A stretch of 23,417 bases of DNA. It comes from Casimicrobiaceae bacterium (GTDB lineage Bacteria; Pseudomonadota; Gammaproteobacteria; Burkholderiales; Casimicrobiaceae). The stretch is taken from positions 1 to 23,417 of the forward strand of contig DAISYG010000025.1 in NCBI GenBank assembly GCA_036825435.1, given 5' to 3'. Below are positions 1,799 to 18,950 of the stretch, in pieces; positions within the stretch are counted from its first letter, which is position 1, and every line of letters begins with the position of its first letter. The translations under genes were made by a program, and so were the position numbers. Under the pieces are notes generated by a model, which saw nothing but the letters and a program-made list of their open reading frames with translations, did not search any database and was not told the origin of the DNA.

Positions 1799-3166
1799 TT
1801 ATTGGTCAAAAGACAATGTTGCGCTAAACCCACCATCAGAACGGTTGCTCGCACGGAATGTAAAACCATGCAGTTCGGCAATCCGCTTGACGATCGAAAG
1901 GCCCAAACCACTGCCTGTTTGTGTCTGCCCGGGCGGACGGAAGAAACGCTCTTCAAGACGATCGAGATATTCCGATGCAACGCCGGGACCGTCATCGTCA
2001 ACGCGAATGCCTTCGTGCGAAAGATGAACGACGATTTCGCCGCCGTCGTGAATATAGTGTGCTGCATTATCCACCAGGTTGCGCAACAACAGCGTCAGCA
2101 AAACCGAATTACCATTCAGTACAGGTGGCGGTGAAACCTCTTCAAATCGCAACACGATGTGTCGTTTATCGGCAAACGGTTTCACTTCAGCAAACACCGA
2201 TTCAACAATGGCGCGCCAGTCAATCGGTTCGGCGTCCTGAACCTCTCGCAAAGAATCCAGCCGTGATAAAGCCAATAATTGCTCGACGAGACGTGTCGCA
2301 CGATCAATTCCGATGATCAATTGATTCAGCGCATGGTTACGCGCCTCGTCATCATCACCGGCAAGTTGCGCGACTTCGGCCTGAACGCGTAGCGCGGAAA
2401 GTGGCGTGCGCAACTCATGCGAAGCATCCGCGGTGAAACGACGCTCATGAACCAGCGCATCGGCCATATGCTGAAAAAGCTTGTTCAATGCCCGCACCAA
2501 CGGTTGAACTTCGGTTGGCACACGGTCGGGAGCAATTGGTGTGGCATCGCCTGGATTTCGGTTCGGCAATTCTCTTGCTACTGCACGCAGCGGAGAAAGT
2601 TCGCGGCTGATCAGCCAAACAATCGCAATCAACATCAAAGGCAACGTTAACAACCATGGTAAAAGAGTTGTGGCAATCAGTCCCAGCGTCAAATCCTGTC
2701 GGAATTCCAACTCCTGGCCAACCACGATGCGGAAACGTCCATCCTGAGACGTCAGATAGAAAAAACGCCAAAGCTCATCTTCGTCATCATCGTCGTCACG
2801 TAAATAATTGTTAATGAAGCCGTTGATCGAAGTACTGAATGGTATGAACCGTCCTTTGTCACCATCGTTGAGAAACATCTGTCCATCAAGGGAAAAAACG
2901 GCAAAAGCCAGGGCGTCATCTTCTTCCTCGCCCTCATCGCCTTCCTCTATAACATGTGATGTTTTGGGTAAACTAAACGATCGATTCTGAAACAACGCAT
3001 CAAGGTCGGCATACGCCAGACTCTTGGCAAAAAGTATTTGCTGTGTATCGAACAGTTCATTAAGCGCATGACGCGTTTGAAAATAAGAAACCGCGCTGAT
3101 CACCAACCAAATAATCAGAGCGACGGCTGAAAAGAAAACCGTCAGACGCAAACGAAGGCTTTTCAC
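1799..3166 (-). CDS. Two-component sensor histidine kinase of the BasS/QseC/PmrB type. It has two TM segments, a periplasmic sensor domain with poly-acidic tracts, and HAMP, HisKA and HATPase_c domains.
   Basis: 455 aa. H-box [14 protein letters not shown]1 [17 protein letters not shown] and TM2 [24 protein letters not shown]. Periplasmic acidic stretches [11 protein letters not shown] and DDDDDEDE. C-terminal G-boxes DDDGPGV and GSGLGLSIV. It overlaps the upstream response-regulator gene by 4 nt (ATGA). Confidence 0.9.
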
Positions 3167-3840
3167 GACTGATGCTCCTGAGGAACTTCATCCAGAACAT
3201 AACCGATGCCGCGCACCGTGCGAATAACCTGATTACCCAGCTTTCGGCGCAGATGATGAATATGAACATCAATCGCGTTGCTCTCGATTTCGCTTTCCCA
3301 GTTGTACAGTTTTTCAATGATCATTTCGCGCGGCAATACTCGTCCTTTGTTCTGCATGAAAAGTTCGAGCAGCGCCAACTCGCGTGCCGCCAGCACCACC
3401 GGCATTCCGTGGTGTGTGACCGTGCGGGAGGCCGGATCAAACGTCAGCGCACCACATTGCAACACGGCGGTCGCTTCCCCGTGCCGTCGCCGAATCAGGG
3501 CGTTAAGCCGCGCTACCAATTCACTCAGCGCAAATGGTTTGACCAGATAATCATCGGCGCCCGCGTTAAGCCCGGCGACACGTTGATCCAACGCGTCGCG
3601 CGCGGTCAGGATCAGCACGGGAACATCTTGCTTATCCTGTCGCCATCGCGCCAGCACATCCATGCCGTCGAGCCCTGGCAGACCGAGATCAAGCACTACC
3701 GCGTCGTAAGGGGCAGACGCAAGCGCCTTTTGTCCGGCAATACCATCACGAAACCAATCCACGGCAAAACCGTACCGGAACAAGCCCGCTTTGAGACCAT
3801 CACCGATCAGCGGATCATCTTCCAAAAGCAGGATGCGCAT
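3163..3840 (-). CDS. OmpR/PhoB-family response regulator (BasR/QseB/PmrA-like)
   Basis: 225 aa. Receiver motifs [29 protein letters not shown] and [14 protein letters not shown]-terminal winged helix [12 protein letters not shown]. It is translationally coupled to the kinase gene. Confidence 0.9.
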
Positions 3841-3860
3841 GATGGTTTATTCGCTCGCTA

Positions 3861-4142
3861 TTATTTGTCCGGGCGAGAATGAATCAACGCCCCGTCAGCG
3901 TCGTTGAAATACACTTTGACGCGTCGCTTTTCCTTATCATAGCCTTCGATCTTGTAGCAATTATGTTCATACTCGAATTCGCGTACTTGATAGCCATCTT
4001 GCTCCAGTTTGAGGAAAAATGACGACAACAACATCGGTTGCGCCGCAGGTGCTTTGTTGCAATAGCGATCATCGTCGGCAAATGCGGGCGTCGCCAGAAA
4101 AGAAGCGGCGATGATGATCGGAAGAATGAGATGCTTTTTCAT
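3861..4142 (-). CDS. PepSY-domain periplasmic protein, first gene of the two-component operon.
   Basis: 93 aa. Signal peptide MKKHLILPIIIAASFLATPAFA. A YEHNCYKIEGYDKEKRRVKVYFNDADGALI PepSY-like core. SD AGGAG 7 nt upstream. Its stop codon lies 20 nt from the response-regulator start. Confidence 0.7.
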   Translation of the reverse strand: MKKHLILPIIIAASFLATPAFADDDRYCNKAPAAQPMLLSSFFLKLEQDGYQVREFEYEHNCYKIEGYDKEKRRVKVYFNDADGALIHSRPDK

Positions 4143-4373: not shown

Positions 4374-4464
4374 TGGCGGAGAGAGCGGGATTCGAACCCG
4401 CGTCAGGGTATTCCCCTGAACACGCTTTCCAGGCGTGCGATTTAAACCACTCATCCATCTCTCC
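4374..4464 (-). tRNA. tRNA-Ser (anticodon GGA)
   Basis: The reverse complement reads GGAGAGATGGATGAGTGGTTTAAATCGCACGCCTGGAAAGCGTGTTCAGGGGAATACCCTGACGCGGGTTCGAATCCCGCTCTCTCCGCCA. It has a long variable arm, anticodon loop CTGGAAA, and a perfect 7-bp acceptor stem. CCA is encoded. Confidence 0.9.
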
Positions 4465-12500: not shown

Positions 12501-13364
12501 TTATTGTAGTCCATCCGAATATAAATGTACGGTTTCCCGCAAAAAGTGATCCAGTTCCTCGACGTTCTTGTGCTCCATTTTCTGCTCAAAATCATTTGAA
12601 GCAAGGCGATTCAGTTCCTGCTCGATAAATGCATGGATACCCGGCCAGCGCTCACTGTATTCCGCTTCACCGGAACGCATTTTAATATCCAGCAGACGAT
12701 TGATTTCATCAAGCAGCGCCGGATCGTCCAGCGTACCAACAGCAAGATCGGCAAAGCGCATCGGCGGCTGGCCTTGACGGGTTTCAATCCAGCGTACCGC
12801 CAACAGCGGGCGCAAAACATACAGATATTTTTTCAGGCGCACCTGATCATCTTGCAAATAGCCACGAAAATTGCTTTTCGCCATCGTCAGATAATGGTGG
12901 TAGCCCTTCAACGATGAAAAATGCGTCTGCGCCAATACGCGCAACCGCCGAACCGTTTCCGCTTCTTCGCGGTAAACAACCGGCGAATCGAGCCATTCCA
13001 GCAACACCGGATTGGATCGCAACAATAACTGCAACGTCTTGCGCAGTTCCCAACCATTGATATCAAGCGCATCATCAATGGGCAATTCGATGACATCGCG
13101 CTGAGGTTCAACCGACAGATACCATGGCAAACGAGGCACATAGATGAAGCGTACATCGTAATCGCTGTCCGGTGATGCAAAGCCCCAGGCACGGCTTCCC
13201 GATTCACAGGCATAAAGGATCGTGACCTCGTACTTTCGTTCGATGCCCTGCAATGATTGCACGATGGCAGCACGTACGTTTTCATCAATGGGATGATTGC
13301 TTGATATTTTCGGGTTCATTTGCCTGACCGTTTCTTCATTTGTCTTCTTCACCCTTTCACACAC
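12501..13364 (-). CDS. Pol-beta-superfamily nucleotidyltransferase, RtcB-associated. It is the last gene of the rtc operon.
   Basis: 287 aa. Nucleotidyltransferase motif YACESGSRAWGFASPDSDYDVRF (GS...DxD). The start overlaps the rtcB 3' end by 16 nt (GTG at 13364). An alternative ATG at 13319 would give 272 aa. Confidence 0.75.
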   Translation of the reverse strand: MCERVKKTNEETVRQMNPKISSNHPIDENVRAAIVQSLQGIERKYEVTILYACESGSRAWGFASPDSDYDVRFIYVPRLPWYLSVEPQRDVIELPIDDALDINGWELRKTLQLLLRSNPVLLEWLDSPVVYREEAETVRRLRVLAQTHFSSLKGYHHYLTMAKSNFRGYLQDDQVRLKKYLYVLRPLLAVRWIETRQGQPPMRFADLAVGTLDDPALLDEINRLLDIKMRSGEAEYSERWPGIHAFIEQELNRLASNDFEQKMEHKNVEELDHFLRETVHLYSDGLQ

Positions 13365-14581
13365 ACCACCTGCCGCAACGTATGCACCACTTCGACCAGC
13401 GAATGCTGCGCATGCATCACGGCGTCAATATCCTTGTAGGCCATCGGAATCTCGTCGATCACATCGCTGTCCTTACGGCACTCCACATGCGCCGTCGCAC
13501 GAACCTGATCGTCCACATTGAAACGACGCTTGGCCTCGTTGCGGCTCATCACCCGCCCTGCACCATGGCTGCACGAACAGAATGATTCCTCATTACCAAG
13601 ACCACGAACAATATAACTTTTGGCGCCCATGGATCCGGGGATGATACCCAACTGCCCCTTGTATGCCGACACCGCACCTTTGCGGGTAACCCAGATGTTC
13701 TCACCGAAGTGCGTTTCGCGCTGTACGTAGTTGTGGTGGCAGTTTACCGCCCCCCTATCGGTGGCAAACGGTTTGGCGATTGATGCCCGTACTGCGCTGA
13801 CCACGTTCGCCATCATCGCATCACGGTTCCGACGCGCATAATCCTGCGCCCAACCCACTGCCTCAATGTAATCATCGAAGTACTCGCTGCCTTCTTCAAA
13901 ATACGCAAGATCACGATCGGGCAGATGGATCATGTGTTTTTCCATGTCCTTTCTCGCCAGATCGATAAACAGCGTACCGATGGCATTGCCCACACCGCGC
14001 GAACCCGAATGCAGCATCAACCAGACACGCTCGCTCTCATCCAGACATACCTCGATAAAATGGTTGCCCGTTCCCAGCGTTCCCAGGTGTTTATGGTTGT
14101 TCGTGTTTTTCAGGCACGGGTATTTTTCGGTGATGCGCTCGAACCCGGGCAGCAACGCCGTCCACATCGCGTCAACGTTCTGCGGCGTATCGTGCCACGA
14201 CCCTTTATCACGCTTGCCCCTTGATACTTCACGCCCATGCGGTACCGCTTTTTCAATCGCGCAACGCAATGCATACAGGCTATCCGGGAGGTCGGAAGCC
14301 GTCAGCGTGGTGCGCGTTGCCATCATGCCACAACCGATATCCACACCGACTGCCGCCGGGATGATCGCAGCCTGCGTCGGGATCACACTGCCGATGGTCG
14401 AGCCCTTACCGAGATGCACGTCCGGCATGACCGCCAGGTGATGGAAGATGAATGGCATCTGTGCCGTCGCCAGCAATTGTTTGCGCGCGCCATCCTCCAC
14501 CGGCACACCCTGCGTCCACATTTTGATTGCCGCGCTGCCTTCCTGTTCAATAATGTTGTAGTCCATTTTCACTTCATTCAT
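13349..14581 (-). CDS. rtcB: RNA 3'-phosphate/2',3'-cyclic phosphate ligase RtcB (RNA-splicing ligase)
   Basis: 410 aa. The N-terminus MNEVKMDYNIIEQEGSAAIKMWTQGVPVEDGARKQLLATAQMPFIFHHLAVMPDVHLGKGSTIGSVIPT is collinear with E. coli RtcB. Metal-binding NCHHNY and the GMP-histidine motif CSHGAGR are present. The start overlaps the upstream Zn-ribbon gene by 8 nt. Confidence 0.95.
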   Translation of the reverse strand: MNEVKMDYNIIEQEGSAAIKMWTQGVPVEDGARKQLLATAQMPFIFHHLAVMPDVHLGKGSTIGSVIPTQAAIIPAAVGVDIGCGMMATRTTLTASDLPDSLYALRCAIEKAVPHGREVSRGKRDKGSWHDTPQNVDAMWTALLPGFERITEKYPCLKNTNNHKHLGTLGTGNHFIEVCLDESERVWLMLHSGSRGVGNAIGTLFIDLARKDMEKHMIHLPDRDLAYFEEGSEYFDDYIEAVGWAQDYARRNRDAMMANVVSAVRASIAKPFATDRGAVNCHHNYVQRETHFGENIWVTRKGAVSAYKGQLGIIPGSMGAKSYIVRGLGNEESFCSCSHGAGRVMSRNEAKRRFNVDDQVRATAHVECRKDSDVIDEIPMAYKDIDAVMHAQHSLVEVVHTLRQVVCVKG

Positions 14582-14939
14582 TGATTATCTTTCTTTCCAT
14601 CTTTTTCATTTTTCCTGCTTCACTGATTCTACGTGCCTCGGCTTTCCGTTGTCGTTCCTTTGCACGACAAGCCCGGCAACGCACTGCGATCGAGTCAGGA
14701 TTTCCACGCATTTGCTCATACCAGCGCTTCCGCCGTGCGGCATACCAGATTTCCTCTTTTCCACAATCCTTGCAAGTGAACGGAAAATCTTCATAATAGC
14801 CTTCGGGAAAACGCATCGACAGAACCCATGCATCCCAGGGATCCAATCCTTCGGTATTTACCGGTACCCGCTGATGATTTTTCTCCAGAAAACTTTTCTT
14901 TCTTTGCTTTCTGGCGGATACTTTTTTCTTGATACTCAT
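14574..14939 (-). CDS. Small basic zinc-ribbon protein (two CxxC pairs), translationally coupled to rtcB.
   Basis: 121 aa from ATG 14939 (MSIKKK...), with a GGGAG SD 5 nt upstream. The ORF track starts at 14957. Motifs FTCKDCGKEE and VRCRACRAKE form a C4 zinc ribbon. The termini are lysine/arginine-rich. I recognise no family. Confidence 0.6.
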   Translation of the reverse strand: MSIKKKVSARKQRKKSFLEKNHQRVPVNTEGLDPWDAWVLSMRFPEGYYEDFPFTCKDCGKEEIWYAARRKRWYEQMRGNPDSIAVRCRACRAKERQRKAEARRISEAGKMKKMERKIINE

Positions 14940-15074
14940 CATCGCTCCCAAAATCACATGTCAGAGAACAGGCATCAGACATCAGTAAAAGTATCTCTTC
15001 GCTCTGACTGAAAAACTTCTATCTCCGATCAAGCCCAAAAGTTTCCTTGTTCTCCGCAACATCCAAAATATCGG

Positions 15075-15299: not shown

Positions 15300-16550
15300 T
15301 TAACCAGCCTTCAGCGACACCAGACCATTCAACACCTGATCCAGGCCACCCACCACCGAAATGCGGTCGATCCGTTCGGCCACGCGCTCCAGGGTTTCCA
15401 GTTCCTTGAGGCGCAACGCCACCGGGTTGTCTTCCATCACCTTGGCGGTATTGAGCAGCGAACGTGTTGCGTTGGTTTCTTCACGACGGCGGATCACGTT
15501 GGCTTCCGCCACTTTCTGCGCTTCCACCACGCGGGCAAGAATATCCTTCATCTCGCCCGGCAGCACGATATCGCGCACGCCGAGGCTCATCACTTCAAGA
15601 CCAAAACCTTCCAGTTTGGTTTTCAAATGTGCGCTGACCATCTCATCAATACTCTGCTTGTTTTCAAGAATCGCATCGAGCGTACGCGTACCCACTGCCG
15701 CACGCAAACCGAACTGCAATTCGCGGTACAAGTATTCAACCGGCTTGTTGACCTGCGCAAACGCCAGTGCCACATCGGTAAAGCGCCAGTTGGCCACCAG
15801 CGTCAGACGCAAACCAACGCGATCCTTGGTCAGGATTTCCTGACCGCTGACCTCCATCGCCTGCAAACGCGTATCCACCAGTTCAAGTTGCACCTCACGG
15901 TTGAAGCGCCAGAATGCACGCAAGCCGGGCGACAACAATTGCTCCACCTTGCCGTCGATGCGCAACACACCAACATGGTACGCGGGCACCTGCGCGACCA
16001 ACACGCCGTCCAGACCGATCACCGCACGGTTTTTCAGGTTGGCCGCGTTGAGCTGCTTCGCCACCTTTTCGGGCAATTCGGTATGGTCTTCCAGCTTGAA
16101 ACGCTCCAAACGGTGCTGCTTCAAACCTTTCCAGACATAGTGCCGTGCGCCCGGTGCCAACACCTCAACAAGGATATCGTTCTCAAAACGCAAACCTGTT
16201 TCATTTTCTTCCAGCACCATGGTGATGAAATGTTCTTCCGCAACCTGCGGATCATTCATCAGCAAATATTCCACCACATGATTTGCATGCATCACGCTGT
16301 CCTGTACGCAATTGCCCATCGTCCGTCTTTTCAGCGGATCGAACAGCCAATAGCGGCCAGGCGCAAGAATCCGTTCAAAATCGTCATCACGAAACAAAGT
16401 GCCCTTTTCGTTGTGCTTCACAACATATCTTTTGAAAAACAACATATTCATTCTCCCATCAATCGCCAACCTGTCGCCGGTTCGACGGACTTCCTTCTCG
16501 GCACCTGCGAGGAGGCTCATCACAAAATCCATGTTCATCTGGCAGCGCAC
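15300..16550 (-). CDS. SPFH/band-7 (stomatin/HflKC-like) domain protein. It has an uncharacterised N-terminal domain of about 170 aa and no TM anchor. It is the first protein gene of the RtcR-controlled operon.
   Basis: 416 aa. The C-terminal half carries the SPFH signature: VLRIDGKVEQLLSPGLRAFWRF...ILTKDRVGLRLTLVANWR...LGVRDIVLPGEMKDILARVVEAQKVAEANVIRRREETNATRSLLNTAKVM. I see no hydrophobic helix. The start is uncertain, with several in-frame Met in the first 11 codons and no clear SD. Confidence 0.75.
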   Translation of the reverse strand: MRCQMNMDFVMSLLAGAEKEVRRTGDRLAIDGRMNMLFFKRYVVKHNEKGTLFRDDDFERILAPGRYWLFDPLKRRTMGNCVQDSVMHANHVVEYLLMNDPQVAEEHFITMVLEENETGLRFENDILVEVLAPGARHYVWKGLKQHRLERFKLEDHTELPEKVAKQLNAANLKNRAVIGLDGVLVAQVPAYHVGVLRIDGKVEQLLSPGLRAFWRFNREVQLELVDTRLQAMEVSGQEILTKDRVGLRLTLVANWRFTDVALAFAQVNKPVEYLYRELQFGLRAAVGTRTLDAILENKQSIDEMVSAHLKTKLEGFGLEVMSLGVRDIVLPGEMKDILARVVEAQKVAEANVIRRREETNATRSLLNTAKVMEDNPVALRLKELETLERVAERIDRISVVGGLDQVLNGLVSLKAG

Positions 16551-16698
16551 GGTGTTGCTGTGCTTGCGAGGTTCACACCGACTTCATCATTCGCTTCGTC
16601 ACCGATGCAGATTGGGCGTCGGCCAAACCGGCGGCGGCGCTTGCGCGATCCGCAGTCGGCAGGTATTACATTTATAAAAGTGTCATCAAGAATGACTT

Positions 16699-16789
16699 GC
16701 TTTGGAGCGGGACTTGAACCCGCGACAGACCGATTCCTCGTCGGTTACTCTATCCAACTGAGCTATCCAAATACGGGATTCGAACCCAT
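16699..16789 (-). ncRNA. tRNA-like element (tRNA mimic or pseudo-tRNA) in the leader of the rtc operon. A 74-nt cloverleaf is preceded by an extra T-arm-like hairpin.
   Basis: Minus strand: ATTTGGA-TA-GCTC-AGTTGGATA-GAGT-A-ACCGA-CGAGGAA-TCGGT-CTGTC-GCGGG-TTCAAGT-CCCGC-TCCAAAG-C. The D-arm, T-arm, U8, G18G19 and C48 are canonical. The anticodon loop has G33 and anticodon AGG. The acceptor stem has an A1xG72 mismatch. No CCA is encoded. Immediately 5' of it (16773-16789) lies ATGGGTTCGAATCCCGT, a second T-arm-like hairpin. Confidence 0.5.
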
Positions 16790-16874
16790 GCCTTAACGGT
16801 TTCCAATAGACAAGCATCAAACAGCAGCGGCATACGCACAGACAACAGCCGAAGTCCGGTTCGTGCGCACCGGT

Positions 16875-17156
16875 GGGGCTAGAGCGTGCCGACACGAGTT
16901 TTGCTATTGTCATTGATCGGCACGGCGGGCCAGACAAGGCGGAAAACGCAACGCATGGTGGTTCCCATGGGCAAGTTTTCCAACGCAGTATGGCGCGCTG
17001 TGCCGTTCAACCCGAAGGGCTGGCACTGGTAAACAGCCATTCTTCGTCATTCGTCGTTTATTTGGATTAACCAAACTGCTCTCCTCATTCCTCGACTAGC
17101 CGCTTACCAGTACCAGTGGCAACAACAAAACCCGTGTCGGCACGCTCTAGAACCCC
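16875..17156. repeat. Long-range 22-24-bp inverted repeat (GGGGCTAGAGCGTGCCGACACG / CGTGTCGGCACGCTCTAGAACCCC) enclosing about 235 nt of non-coding sequence in the rtc operon leader.
   Basis: Bases 16875-16898 pair with 17133-17156, with 18 contiguous identical base pairs plus a flanking GGGG/CCCC. This would form a long closing stem in the minus-strand transcript. The only ORF inside (16873..17070 +, 65 aa) is on the wrong strand and has no support. Confidence 0.5.
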
Positions 17157-17200
17157 GAACCTGTCAGCCAGTGTTTGACCATCATGTCTGCCTTCTTTAT

Positions 17201-17216
17201 TGCCAGTTCTGTGCCA
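17201..17216 (-). promoter_or_regulatory. Sigma54 (RpoN) promoter driving the rtc operon leftwards, presumably activated by RtcR.
   Basis: The minus strand reads TTGGCACAGAACTGGCAAT. The -24 element TGGCAC and the -12 element TGGCA, separated by 5 nt, match the consensus TGGCAC-N5-TTGCA at 9 of 10 core positions. It lies about 145 nt upstream of the divergent rtcR start, with an AT-rich region in between. Confidence 0.6.
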
Positions 17217-17360
17217 ATAAATCGCTGACGCTGAAAATAACTGCAAGTCTTTGTATTAACAGATATAAAATTTTTTCATGAGTTTCTGCTATCAAATTTC
17301 CCCATTCATTTTTCTATTTTTGCTAGAATATTTGATATATTTTTATATAAAATGATAATC

Positions 17361-18950
17361 ATGAAGAAGACGGTGGTCATCGGTTTTCTCGGCACGCAGC
17401 TCGACAATGGCGGACGCGGCAGCGACCGTTGGAAAAAATGGCGCCCCAGCATCGCCATCTGCCAGCAGGAAAATCTGCCCGTACATCGGATTGAGTTGAT
17501 TCACGATGCACGCAGCCGCAGTCTGGCGGGGCGCGTCGCCGAGGACATCGTTTCGGTATCGCCACACACCGAGGTGCGGCACATCGAAAAACAATTACGC
17601 GACCCCTGGGACTTTGAAGAGGTCTATACGCTGTTGCTTGATCTGGCGCGCTCGTACCCGTTCGACACCGAAAACGAAAACTATCTGATTCACATCACCA
17701 CCGGCACGCACGTCGCGCAGATCTGCTGGTATCTGCTCACCGAAGCACATTATTTTCCAGCGCAACTGTTGCAGGCATCGCCACCACTCAACCGTAAAGG
17801 CGTGCTCGACCGTGCAGGCACGCATGCGATTATTGATCTGGATCTTTCCCGCTACGACAAAATCGCACAGCGTTTTCGCGTCGAGCAAGCCGATACCGTC
17901 AGCCGCCTCAAGTCCGGCATTGCCACACGCAACCCCGCGTTCAATACCATGATCGAACGCATTGAGCGGGTGGCCGGACGTTCGCGCGCGCCGATGCTGC
18001 TGGTCGGCCCCACCGGAGCGGGCAAATCATTCCTCGCGCAACGCGTTTATGAATTGAAACGTGAGCGACAACAACTCAAAGGCCGCTTCGTCGAAGTCAA
18101 CTGTGCCACGCTGCGCGGAGATGCTGCGATGTCGGCATTGTTCGGCCACGTCAAAGGCGCGTTTACCGGCGCACAGTCGGAACGCGCCGGGTTGCTGCGC
18201 TCGGCGCACGGCGGCGTGCTGTTCCTCGACGAAATCGCCGAACTGGGACAGGACGAACAGGCGATGCTGCTCAAGGCCATTGAGGAAAAACACTTTCTTC
18301 CGTTCGGTGGCGACAACGAGGTCAGCAGCGATTTCCAACTCATCGCCGGTACGCACCGCGATTTGAGGCAGCGCGTTCGTGAAGGACTTTTCCGCGAAGA
18401 TTTGTACGCCCGCATCAACCTGTGGACGTTCACCCTGCCCGGTCTTGCCAAACGCACCGAAGATATCGAGCCGAACCTGGATTACGAACTTGAGCGTTAC
18501 GCATGCGATTACGGTGTACAGGTTCGCTTCAATGTCGAAGCGCGCCGCCATTACCTGACATTCGCCTGCTCCACCGAAGCGCAATGGCCCGGCAACTTTC
18601 GTGAATTGACTTCCAGCGTTACCCGCATGGCAACGCTATCGACGGGTGGGCGCATCACCGAGCAAGATGTTCTCGATGAAATCGCCCGTTTGCGCGAAAG
18701 CTGGCACGAGCCTGCCCGTGCGGATCAGGTTGCCGTCGTGCTGGGCGATGCTGCACAGACCATCGACCTGTTTGACCGCTGCCAGCTCAATACCGTACTG
18801 CGGGTTTGCCACGACAGCCGAACCCTGTCAGAAGCCGGACGCACCTTGTTCGCTGCGTCGCGTCAACACAAAAAACAAACCAATGACGCCGACCGCCTGC
18901 GCAAATATCTGCTGCGCTTCGGACTGGATTGGGAGGCGGTACATCGGTGA
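17361..18950 (+). CDS. rtcR: RtcR: sigma54-dependent transcriptional activator with an N-terminal CARF domain, an AAA+ domain and a C-terminal HTH.
   Basis: The N-terminus MKKTVVIGFLGTQLDNGGRGSDRWKKWRPSIAICQQ...YLIHITTGTHVAQICWYLL is collinear with E. coli RtcR. Walker A GPTGAGKS. Sigma54-interaction motif GAFTGA. The ORF track starts at 17352 (MIIMKK...). 17361 matches the E. coli start and gives 529 aa. Confidence 0.9.
   Translation: MKKTVVIGFLGTQLDNGGRGSDRWKKWRPSIAICQQENLPVHRIELIHDARSRSLAGRVAEDIVSVSPHTEVRHIEKQLRDPWDFEEVYTLLLDLARSYPFDTENENYLIHITTGTHVAQICWYLLTEAHYFPAQLLQASPPLNRKGVLDRAGTHAIIDLDLSRYDKIAQRFRVEQADTVSRLKSGIATRNPAFNTMIERIERVAGRSRAPMLLVGPTGAGKSFLAQRVYELKRERQQLKGRFVEVNCATLRGDAAMSALFGHVKGAFTGAQSERAGLLRSAHGGVLFLDEIAELGQDEQAMLLKAIEEKHFLPFGGDNEVSSDFQLIAGTHRDLRQRVREGLFREDLYARINLWTFTLPGLAKRTEDIEPNLDYELERYACDYGVQVRFNVEARRHYLTFACSTEAQWPGNFRELTSSVTRMATLSTGGRITEQDVLDEIARLRESWHEPARADQVAVVLGDAAQTIDLFDRCQLNTVLRVCHDSRTLSEAGRTLFAASRQHKKQTNDADRLRKYLLRFGLDWEAVHR

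Follow-up and report, generated by a model that had tools for sequence, protein, structure and literature searches.

The contig DAISYG010000025.1 of a Casimicrobiaceae bacterium, analysed here over 23,417 nucleotides (hereafter the window), exhibits on its minus strand a tRNA-like element of 74 nucleotides (nt; position 16772 to 16699) within the leader of an operon for RNA repair that codes for the RNA ligase RtcB. The element matches the description of the b7a-tRNA (band-7-associated tRNA) family given in bioRxiv 10.1101/312249, and very probably belongs to it. Our reading of the whole, to which we give a probability of roughly 0.55, is that this b7a-tRNA is a non-decoding module of the leader that acts as the RNA partner of slipin, the Band-7 (SPFH) protein encoded by the first gene of the operon. 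The RNA is under purifying selection, lies between a conserved sigma-54 promoter and the slipin gene, and is co-inherited with slipin. The element as such is not new, being a further member of a family predicted in 2016. What may still be new here is the multi-domain organisation of the leader, the linkage centred on slipin, and a variant of the locus that lacks rtcR and carries an HNH gene and tRNA arrays.

The tRNA-like element and its conservation

Read 5' to 3' on the minus strand, the cloverleaf starts with one half of the acceptor stem (A-TTTGGA, 16772-16766), which forms six Watson-Crick pairs and an A1xG72 mismatch with the other half (TCCAAA-G, 16706-16700). After the linker TA follow the D-arm (GCTC / AGTTGGATA / GAGT, 16763-16747), with a G-U pair in its stem, a single A, the anticodon arm (ACCGA / CGAGGAA / TCGGT, 16745-16729), with G33 and the "anticodon" AGG, a 5-nt variable loop (CTGTC, 16728-16724) and the T-arm (GCGGG / TTCAAGT / CCCGC, 16723-16707). 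Position 73 is a C (16699), and no CCA comes after it. U8, A9 and A26 are all present, the tertiary positions of the L-shape (U8-A14, G15-C48, G18/G19 in the D-loop, G46, G53-C61 and T54/A58) are intact, and all consensus pairs of all four arms are formed.

ARAGORN calls the element a "tRNA-Pro" with anticodon agg, and the Rfam tRNA model gives it 46.5 bits, above the threshold of 29 (E = 3e-7 for the window). As an internal comparison for this score we used the two ordinary tRNAs on the minus strand of the same window, Met-CAT (685-761) and Ser-GGA (4374-4464), which obtain 64 and 62 bits, respectively. ARAGORN reports no tmRNA and Rfam no tmRNA family match in the window, so that the cloverleaf is not to be taken for the tRNA-like domain of a tmRNA. 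A preliminary description of this DNA, made from the letters alone, had listed these tRNA hallmarks, together with a second T-arm-like hairpin directly 5' of the element (ATGGG-TTCGAAT-CCCGT, 16789-16773, abutting position 1); every one of them is found where it had been placed, and the Rfam tRNA model, which had been suggested as a check, recognises the element. The G33/AGG loop, the A1xG72 mismatch and the lack of CCA, presented there as defects, are equally real, but they prove to be traits of the family rather than aberrations of one copy.

Alignment of slipin homologues yielded a comparison set of 80 genomic loci (L001-L080) from Betaproteobacteria and Pseudomonas, 78 of which include enough upstream sequence to be informative. 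The nearest relatives of the window locus are found in termite-gut Zoogloeaceae/Azoarcus metagenome-assembled genomes. In most of the 80 loci ARAGORN reports a same-strand "tRNA" located 250-340 nt 5' of slipin. A covariance model (R1) built from 42 elements identifies the element in the same place upstream of slipin in 74 of the 78 informative loci. Members score 64-96 bits, apart from one outlier at 40.5 bits (L037), and genuine tRNAs reach up to 66 bits, overlapping the low end of the family; the window copy, at 79.3 bits, is one of the 42 elements of the model and thus matches it partly by construction.

The alignment of the 42 sequences bears out the cloverleaf. Its pairs are formed at a rate of 95.2%, against 31-44% in slid controls, and compensatory changes are observed at 12 of the 20 pairs, in three of the four stems, including all five pairs of the anticodon stem. 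The covariation alignment of orthologous intergenic regions, proposed in the preliminary description, thus speaks for a conserved cloverleaf. The D-stem shows no covariation, being near-invariant. The acceptor stem is the weakest helix, effectively 4-6 base pairs (bp) long, with pair 2-71 failing in 21 and pair 3-70 in 10 of the 42 sequences. The GG of the D-loop, the T-loop TTCRANY, G46, G53-C61 and the 5-nt length of the variable loop are near-invariant among relatives.

The anticodon loop follows no such constraint. Among the 74 elements that were parsed, 29 have a 7-nt loop of many different sequences, 25 carry a tetraloop (GAAA, GCAA, GCGA or UUCG) on a lengthened anticodon stem, and the remaining 20 have a loop of 3, 5, 6 or 9 nt. 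We also observed a 25-nt extended anticodon arm in one parsed element. Different genomes receive different identities from ARAGORN (Met, Ile, Thr, Asn, Val, Lys, Arg, Leu, while some stay undetermined, with 2-nt "anticodons"), and the acceptor sequence is conserved whatever the "anticodon". Because the D-, T- and variable-loop positions are near-invariant while the anticodon loop varies freely, selection acts on the tRNA body and elbow and leaves the anticodon loop free. The G33 and the "AGG" of the window copy are one draw from this unconstrained loop, and, judged from these sequences, the element is a tRNA-shaped RNA that does not decode.

Linkage to slipin

The genomic loci above were collected through slipin. 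For a view from the RNA side, a sequence pattern derived from the RNA alone was run over metagenome contigs, where it identified 61 loci. A slipin homologue is found on the same strand, 270-830 nt downstream, in 42 of the 43 metagenome loci with at least 900 nt of downstream sequence. These homologues exhibit 32-72% identity, some of them only 32-46%. RtcB is present in only 14 of the 24 metagenome loci with at least 3 kb of downstream DNA, and rtcR is absent from many of the loci matched by the pattern. The tight link is that of the RNA with slipin, in agreement with the name of the family; RtcB, RlaP and RtcR are often neighbours too, but can be dispensed with. The pattern has no match in 2.9 million viral contigs, and the leader has no blastn match in E. 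coli genomes.

Ten metagenome loci exhibit b7a-tRNA and slipin with no RtcB in up to 14 kb (L081, L085, L095, L099, L106, L113, L115, L124, L129 and L133). In two of these (L085 and L113) slipin is followed by a gene for a predicted Ser/Thr protein kinase, as judged from an N-terminal sequence motif only.

A further variant has neither rtcR nor the sigma-54 promoter. Here an HNH endonuclease gene (Pfam HNH_5/HNH) stands directly upstream of the 5' domain of the leader, the b7a-tRNA and slipin. It is observed in genome loci (L039, at 2654-3989, L045, L046, L057, L058, L064, L066, L069, L072 and L079) as well as in metagenome loci (L082, L085, L091, L095, L101, L110, L111, L113, L115, L117 and L131). 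In the genome loci the HNH gene is usually preceded by up to nine canonical-looking tRNA genes (Asp, Phe, Arg-ACG, Pro, His, Glu, Leu, Gln, Tyr and others). In Anabaena, a tRNA array, rtcB, a slipin gene and an HNH gene are similarly under common control, as members of the TrcR regulon (PMC10272220).

The operon and its structured leader

The window has a leader of about 740 nt between a sigma-54-type promoter and slipin. Within it and on the slipin strand, the element follows the promoter after about 420 nt and precedes the slipin start by 248 nt. The promoter sequence (TGGCAC-N5-TGGCA, 17201..17216, minus strand) exhibits the canonical GG/GC spacing, and nearly all relatives that have rtcR possess an equivalent (GGCACG-N4-TCGC) at 440-570 nt upstream of slipin. 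Divergent to the operon, on the plus strand, is rtcR (17352..18950), encoding a sigma-54 activator with an RtcR/CARF-type N-terminal domain (Pfam RtcR and Sigma54_activat; NCBIfam RNA_repair_RtcR, 830 bits against a cut-off of 650). The genes of the operon itself, all on the minus strand, encode slipin (15300..16451; Pfam Band_7, 6e-31; homologues named "slipin family protein"; stomatin matches in the PDB), a small treble-clef zinc-finger protein (zf_Tbcl, 14574..14957; Pfam PF13451, 3.5e-10), the RNA ligase RtcB (13349..14581; Pfam RtcB, 1.4e-129) and the nucleotidyltransferase RlaP of the RNA-ligase-associated Pol-beta family (12501..13364; Pfam PF10127, 7e-98). RtcB joins 3'-phosphate or cyclic-phosphate ends to 5'-OH ends. 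Homologues of RlaP add 1-2 nucleotides at damaged RNA 3' ends (PMC12776372).

The preliminary description had placed the element in the leader of an RtcB operon, between the sigma-54 promoter and the first protein gene. The repair operon and the position of the leader on its sigma-54/RtcR side are as described, and the element does lie between the promoter (17216-17201) and the first gene (start at 16451); that gene, however, is slipin/Band-7, which had been missed, and not rtcB. The slipin start is probably the ATG at 16451, preferred because both the alignment with homologues and a ribosome-binding site, GGGAGA, speak for it, and the 416-amino-acid open reading frame starting from the GTG at 16550 is probably too long. 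The absence of Rsr noted at that stage also holds, no TROVE/Rsr gene being present in the window; neither are genes for RtcA or archease, and the flanks of the operon consist of housekeeping genes.

Within residues 1-150 of slipin, N-terminal to the SPFH domain, an SPFH-type motif (xKxxExGxxFRxxxxxxxLxPG) seems by eye to occur three times, with no evident transmembrane segment. The AlphaFold2 model of slipin, built on a 12-sequence alignment, exhibits a mean predicted local distance difference test score (pLDDT) of 56.8, with less than 50 over the 55 N-terminal residues, and is too poor for a fold search.

Beyond the cloverleaf, the conserved leader region spans from about -520 to -15 relative to the slipin start in the genomic loci, and the leader is about 475 nt long if an insertion specific to the window is set aside. 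An alignment of 31 leaders (A4; the window and 30 relatives) gave an RNAalifold consensus of 119 pairs, which is 90.6% paired, against about 40% in slid controls, and shows compensatory changes at 88 of the 119 pairs. Because derivation and first test of this consensus used one and the same alignment, it was re-tested on 15 metagenome leaders whose identity to every training sequence is below 90%. Nearly all of the consensus pairs are formed in the window. Rfam has no family for the b7a-tRNA or for any domain of the leader (window and 8 related loci scanned).

The 5' domain of the leader (16826..17169, minus strand, interrupted by the insertion in the window) is a predicted three-way junction made of a GGC...GCC helix, a GGGG-loop-CCCC hairpin and a long hairpin with the conserved GGUGCG / GCGUAUGCCGC as its closing sequences. 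Its helices 2-4 are 91-96% paired, with compensatory changes at 19 of 28 pairs, and the window forms 25 of the 28. On the 15 independent leaders this domain is 82-93% paired, against 11-55% in slid controls.

Next comes the T-arm-like hairpin already mentioned (16773..16789, minus strand), which, compared with relatives, presents itself as what is left of a second tRNA-like module upstream. This module is a D-arm-less mini-tRNA in most relatives; the window has kept the T hairpin only, the outer stem being missing. In the relatives (helices 5 and 6) the T hairpin is 97% paired and all five pairs of the outer stem covary. The outer stem fails on the independent set (46% paired), for which a misaligned region of variable length (--keeplength) is a likely cause; covariation and single-sequence folds together give it moderate support. 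The tRNA-like helices as such are 96-100% paired on the independent leaders. In Pseudomonas and in several distant metagenome loci we observed a complete second cloverleaf upstream, often with a short UUCG-type anticodon loop and with 0-5 nt between the tandem mimics (at about 4070-4260 in L049, L051, L053, L055, L060, L063, L065, L067, L068, L070, L071, L073, L075, L076 and L078; also in L103, L109, L120 and L121).

Just 3' of the element, a small hairpin (GUCAU-loop-AUGAC, 16682..16696, minus strand) corresponds to the conserved CUGUC...GACAG of relatives (helix 11, 4 of 5 pairs with compensatory changes). The 3' domain of the leader (16465..16660, minus strand; helices 12-16, mostly covarying) is again a predicted three-way junction, with a closing helix GCCGAC / GUUGGC around a GCAA-capped hairpin and a long irregular hairpin, and it stops some 14 nt short of the start codon. 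Of its 55 pairs, 48 are formed in the window; pairing is weaker (60-78%) on the independent, more distant leaders.

The insertion specific to the window (16879..17146, minus strand) is a palindrome of 268 nt located in the apical loop of the GGGG/CCCC hairpin, with a CTAG at either side, and none of the 30 aligned relatives has it. Its outer stem is about 31 bp long (17156/16875), of which the 18 bp checked form an exact inverted repeat; no further copy of the 18-nt terminal repeat was found, either in the rest of the window or in the metagenome contigs. Folding z-scores are -12 for the insertion alone and -7.3 for the leader with the insertion stem. Our guess is that a miniature inverted-repeat transposable element landed where the RNA tolerates it. 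The 17156/16875 stem was also considered as the closing stem of a giant Y-like RNA, a candidate that was rejected, the stem belonging to an insertion private to this contig.

Tentatively, the tRNA mimic may be one module of a larger, undescribed structured RNA coextensive with a leader of about 475-550 nt, the functional unit being a large RNA-SPFH particle with RtcB and RlaP as optional clients; we regard this as doubtful. Such an RNA would have five parts: the 5' three-way junction, the mini-tRNA or second cloverleaf, the b7a-tRNA, the short hairpin, and, over about 200-270 nt, a 3' three-way junction ending at the ribosome-binding site. The 5' domain and the tandem tRNA-like pair accompany slipin in the RtcR/sigma-54 context as well as in the HNH/tRNA-array context, with RtcB adjacent or not. 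SPFH proteins are known to form large oligomeric assemblies (stomatin and HflK/C entries of the PDB), and the proposed particle could be likened to Y RNA with Ro or to an RNA-loaded stomatin-type cage.

Known relatives and possible functions

The abstract in which Burroughs and Aravind announced their prediction is said to have associated SPFH/Band-7 scaffolds with "a novel tRNA-like molecule". According to the account in bioRxiv 10.1101/312249 (Wolin laboratory, 2018), these authors (Nucleic Acids Res 2016;44:8525) predicted b7a-tRNA next to Band-7 and RtcB, and proposed that b7a-tRNA with Band-7 is the counterpart of Y RNA with Ro and is functionally redundant with YrlA. The same account mentions an occasional swap of protein partners between b7a-tRNA and YrlA, suggests that tRNA-like molecules may contribute to RNA ligation, and states that b7a-tRNA was without experimental validation as of 2018. 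The window locus shares with b7a-tRNA the full cloverleaf in normal order, the adjacent slipin gene and the RtcB repair neighbourhood, here with a divergent rtcR. It differs in details of its lineage (the G33/CGAGGAA loop, the G-U pair of the D-stem, the TTCAAGT T-loop, the degenerate upstream mini-tRNA and the 268-nt insertion), none of which is essential.

Another member appears to have been studied under a different name. PA4581.1 of P. aeruginosa, annotated as "tRNA-Arg4", is located between rtcR (PA4581) and PA4582-PA4585, lacks CCA and has non-canonical positions and an unusual D-loop (PMC13637947). From its position and from related Pseudomonas loci we infer that it is orthologous to the window element. 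Pseudomonas loci of this type have the same layout as the window, but two tandem cloverleaves in place of one cloverleaf and a hairpin remnant. Its RNA has been detected by quantitative reverse-transcription PCR (qRT-PCR) at about half of the level of a normal tRNA (PMC13637947, 2026), and a late cystic fibrosis isolate had it among its most up-regulated genes (PMC8743555, 2021). Both studies treated it as an odd tRNA-Arg, with no link to b7a-tRNA.

The preliminary description had compared the element to Y RNA. YrlA (RF02553; Chen et al. 2014, PMC4201824) indeed shares several features with it, being a non-decoding tRNA mimic with T-arm, D-arm and acceptor-like stem that is encoded in RtcR-controlled rtcB operons and proposed to be the cofactor of a scaffold protein. 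YrlA is, however, circularly permuted (T-arm, acceptor stem-loop, D-arm) and enclosed by a 5'/3' stem, whereas the window element follows the normal tRNA order; and YrlA has a long Ro-binding stem with GNCGAAN0-1G and Rsr/TROVE as its partner, whereas the window has no Ro-type stem and no rsr. The motif GNCGAAN0-1G occurs twice in the leader (about 0.4 occurrences expected by chance, by our own estimate), once in the private insertion and once at a non-conserved site, neither of them in a closing stem. The Rfam YrlA model, also suggested as a check, gives a partial match of 17.5 bits against a threshold of 69 (16790-16747, model positions 30-81), which reaches from the upstream T hairpin across the junction into the D-arm of the cloverleaf, and it has no match in 8 related loci. 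Dimeric tRNAs have been flagged as false positives of YrlA (Chen et al. 2014, PMC4201824), and we attribute the weak match to adjacent tRNA-like modules mimicking the permuted YrlA order across their junction. The element is a true tRNA mimic maintained by selection, different from a normal tRNA, and the Y RNA analogy coincides with the published hypothesis for b7a-tRNA, but membership in YrlA does not stand. As a side point, the junction match raises the possibility that YrlA evolved from a tandem pair of tRNA-like modules.

If the b7a-tRNA is the RNA partner of slipin, the following course of events may be envisaged. The leader would be transcribed from the RtcR/sigma-54 promoter ahead of the genes for slipin, the zinc-finger protein, RtcB and RlaP, so that the RNA would be made together with the repair proteins upon activation of RtcR by damaged tRNA. 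The tRNA-like module would be cut out of the leader by tRNA-processing enzymes, and the excised RNA would bind slipin/Band-7 as a cofactor or scaffold. It could in this way give the repair machinery a tRNA-shaped handle and help organise the repair of tRNA-like substrates, as the functional counterpart of the YrlA RNA with Rsr/Ro in rsr-yrlA-rtcB operons. Taken by itself, this cofactor mechanism falls somewhat short of even odds in our estimation; we favour it over a sensor for RtcR or a substrate for RtcB mainly because the linkage is centred on slipin.

Four points weigh against the partnership with slipin or against parts of its mechanism. Residues 1-150 of slipin have no Pfam or PDB match that would speak for RNA binding. 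The level of PA4581.1 is similar with or without up-regulation of the rtc proteins (PMC13637947), which disagrees with strict co-induction, although qRT-PCR cannot separate the processed RNA from the leader. Processing by RNase P is uncertain, considering the short acceptor stem and the unpaired 1-72 position. Finally, four slipin loci (L036, L043, L080 and L052) have lost the b7a-tRNA and kept the promoter and the 5' domain of the leader, so that the partnership is not obligatory. The first three of these loci belong to Pseudomonas donghuensis, P. rubra and P. entomophila and the last to Chitinimonas; all but the last keep rtcR. With leaders about 75 nt shorter, they are natural knock-outs that can be compared with their relatives.

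Among the alternatives, a cis-acting processing or stability signal survives best, unlikely as it is. RNase P and RNase Z/E sites would detach the 5' domain and set the 5' end of the mRNA, its stability or its translation, and the excised RNA itself would serve no purpose. Co-transcribed tRNAs and mRNAs, such as those of the tRNA-tufB operon, and tRNA-like processing signals, such as the mascRNA of MALAT1, are well known. As in these cases, the window element is a cloverleaf 5' of a coding region on one transcript and a likely RNase P/Z-type substrate; unlike it, they are real decoding tRNAs or lineage-restricted eukaryotic elements and have no specific protein partner. The fixed position inside the mRNA leader, the two tandem tRNA-like modules (abutting in the window, a few nt apart in the inspected relatives) and the 3' domain ending right at the ribosome-binding site are all consistent with a signal of this kind, as are the real tRNA arrays upstream on the same strand in rtcR-less relatives, which make it plausible that tRNA-processing enzymes act on the transcript. 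Such a signal, however, does not need near-invariant tertiary positions in the D-, T- and variable loops over such a phylogenetic distance. The acceptor stem, the main determinant of RNase P, is the weakest helix, and the element stays with slipin where the remaining operon and the promoter differ.

It is distinctly improbable that the element is a decoy, competitive inhibitor or sensor, which would absorb or report tRNA-cleaving toxins, or mimic nicked tRNA at the CARF domain of RtcR. The element stands beside rtcR in most loci, and in Salmonella RtcR is activated by tRNA fragments and by damaged or nicked tRNAs (PMC7790460; PMC10159003); the same inhibitor idea was raised by Hughes et al. 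for YrlA's tRNA-like domain (PMC7790460). Anticodon nucleases, however, read the anticodon loop, which is unconstrained here, and about one third of the relatives carry nuclease-resistant GNRA or UUCG tetraloops in its place, so that the substrate or decoy role proposed in the preliminary description fits poorly. Since the element is equally conserved in loci without rtcR and the sigma-54 promoter, a role directed at RtcR is not its core function.

It is highly improbable that the element functions as a tRNA, however unusual, which would be induced by stress as a back-up or for recoding, receive a CCA tail, be charged and take part in translation. Many relatives have a canonical 7-nt loop with U33 and R37 (e.g. 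CUCAUAA, CUGAUAA), some are annotated as tRNAs (PA4581.1), and real tRNA arrays accompany the rtcR-less variant. On the other hand, the "anticodon" varies by species (Met, Ile, Thr, Asn, Val, Lys, Arg, Pro or none), many copies have tetraloops or loops of 3, 5 or 9 nt, and that of the window has G33. The outermost modelled pairs, 2-71 and 3-70, often fail, A1xG72 adding to this in the window copy, and an acceptor sequence conserved regardless of the "anticodon" is incompatible with the identity rules of synthetases. A decaying tRNA pseudogene, the outcome that the preliminary description had named as fatal to its proposal, or a chance cloverleaf might be suspected from the isolated copy, with its G33, 1-72 mismatch, D-stem G-U pair and missing CCA, but can practically be dismissed in view of 74 of 78 genome loci keeping the cloverleaf in the same position, slipin lying downstream in 42 of 43 scorable metagenome loci, the compensatory changes in three of four stems and the Rfam E-value of 3e-7.

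Because Rfam has no model for b7a-tRNA, genome pipelines label these elements as tRNAs with random anticodons, such as "tRNA-Pro AGG" in the window and, in P. aeruginosa, "tRNA-Arg4", a name by which experimental work has already been led astray (PMC13637947). The comparative data sharpen the question of function: the anticodon loop is dispensable, the elbow is not, and slipin, not RtcB or RtcR, is the partner that stays constant. For these reasons we favour a structural RNA-protein partnership over a decoy for anticodon nucleases. The RtcR/RtcB field is still without in vivo substrates and without a role for the Band-7 and tRNA-like components, and PA4581.1 of P. aeruginosa, together with PA4582-PA4585, is a tractable model in which the partnership may be addressed.

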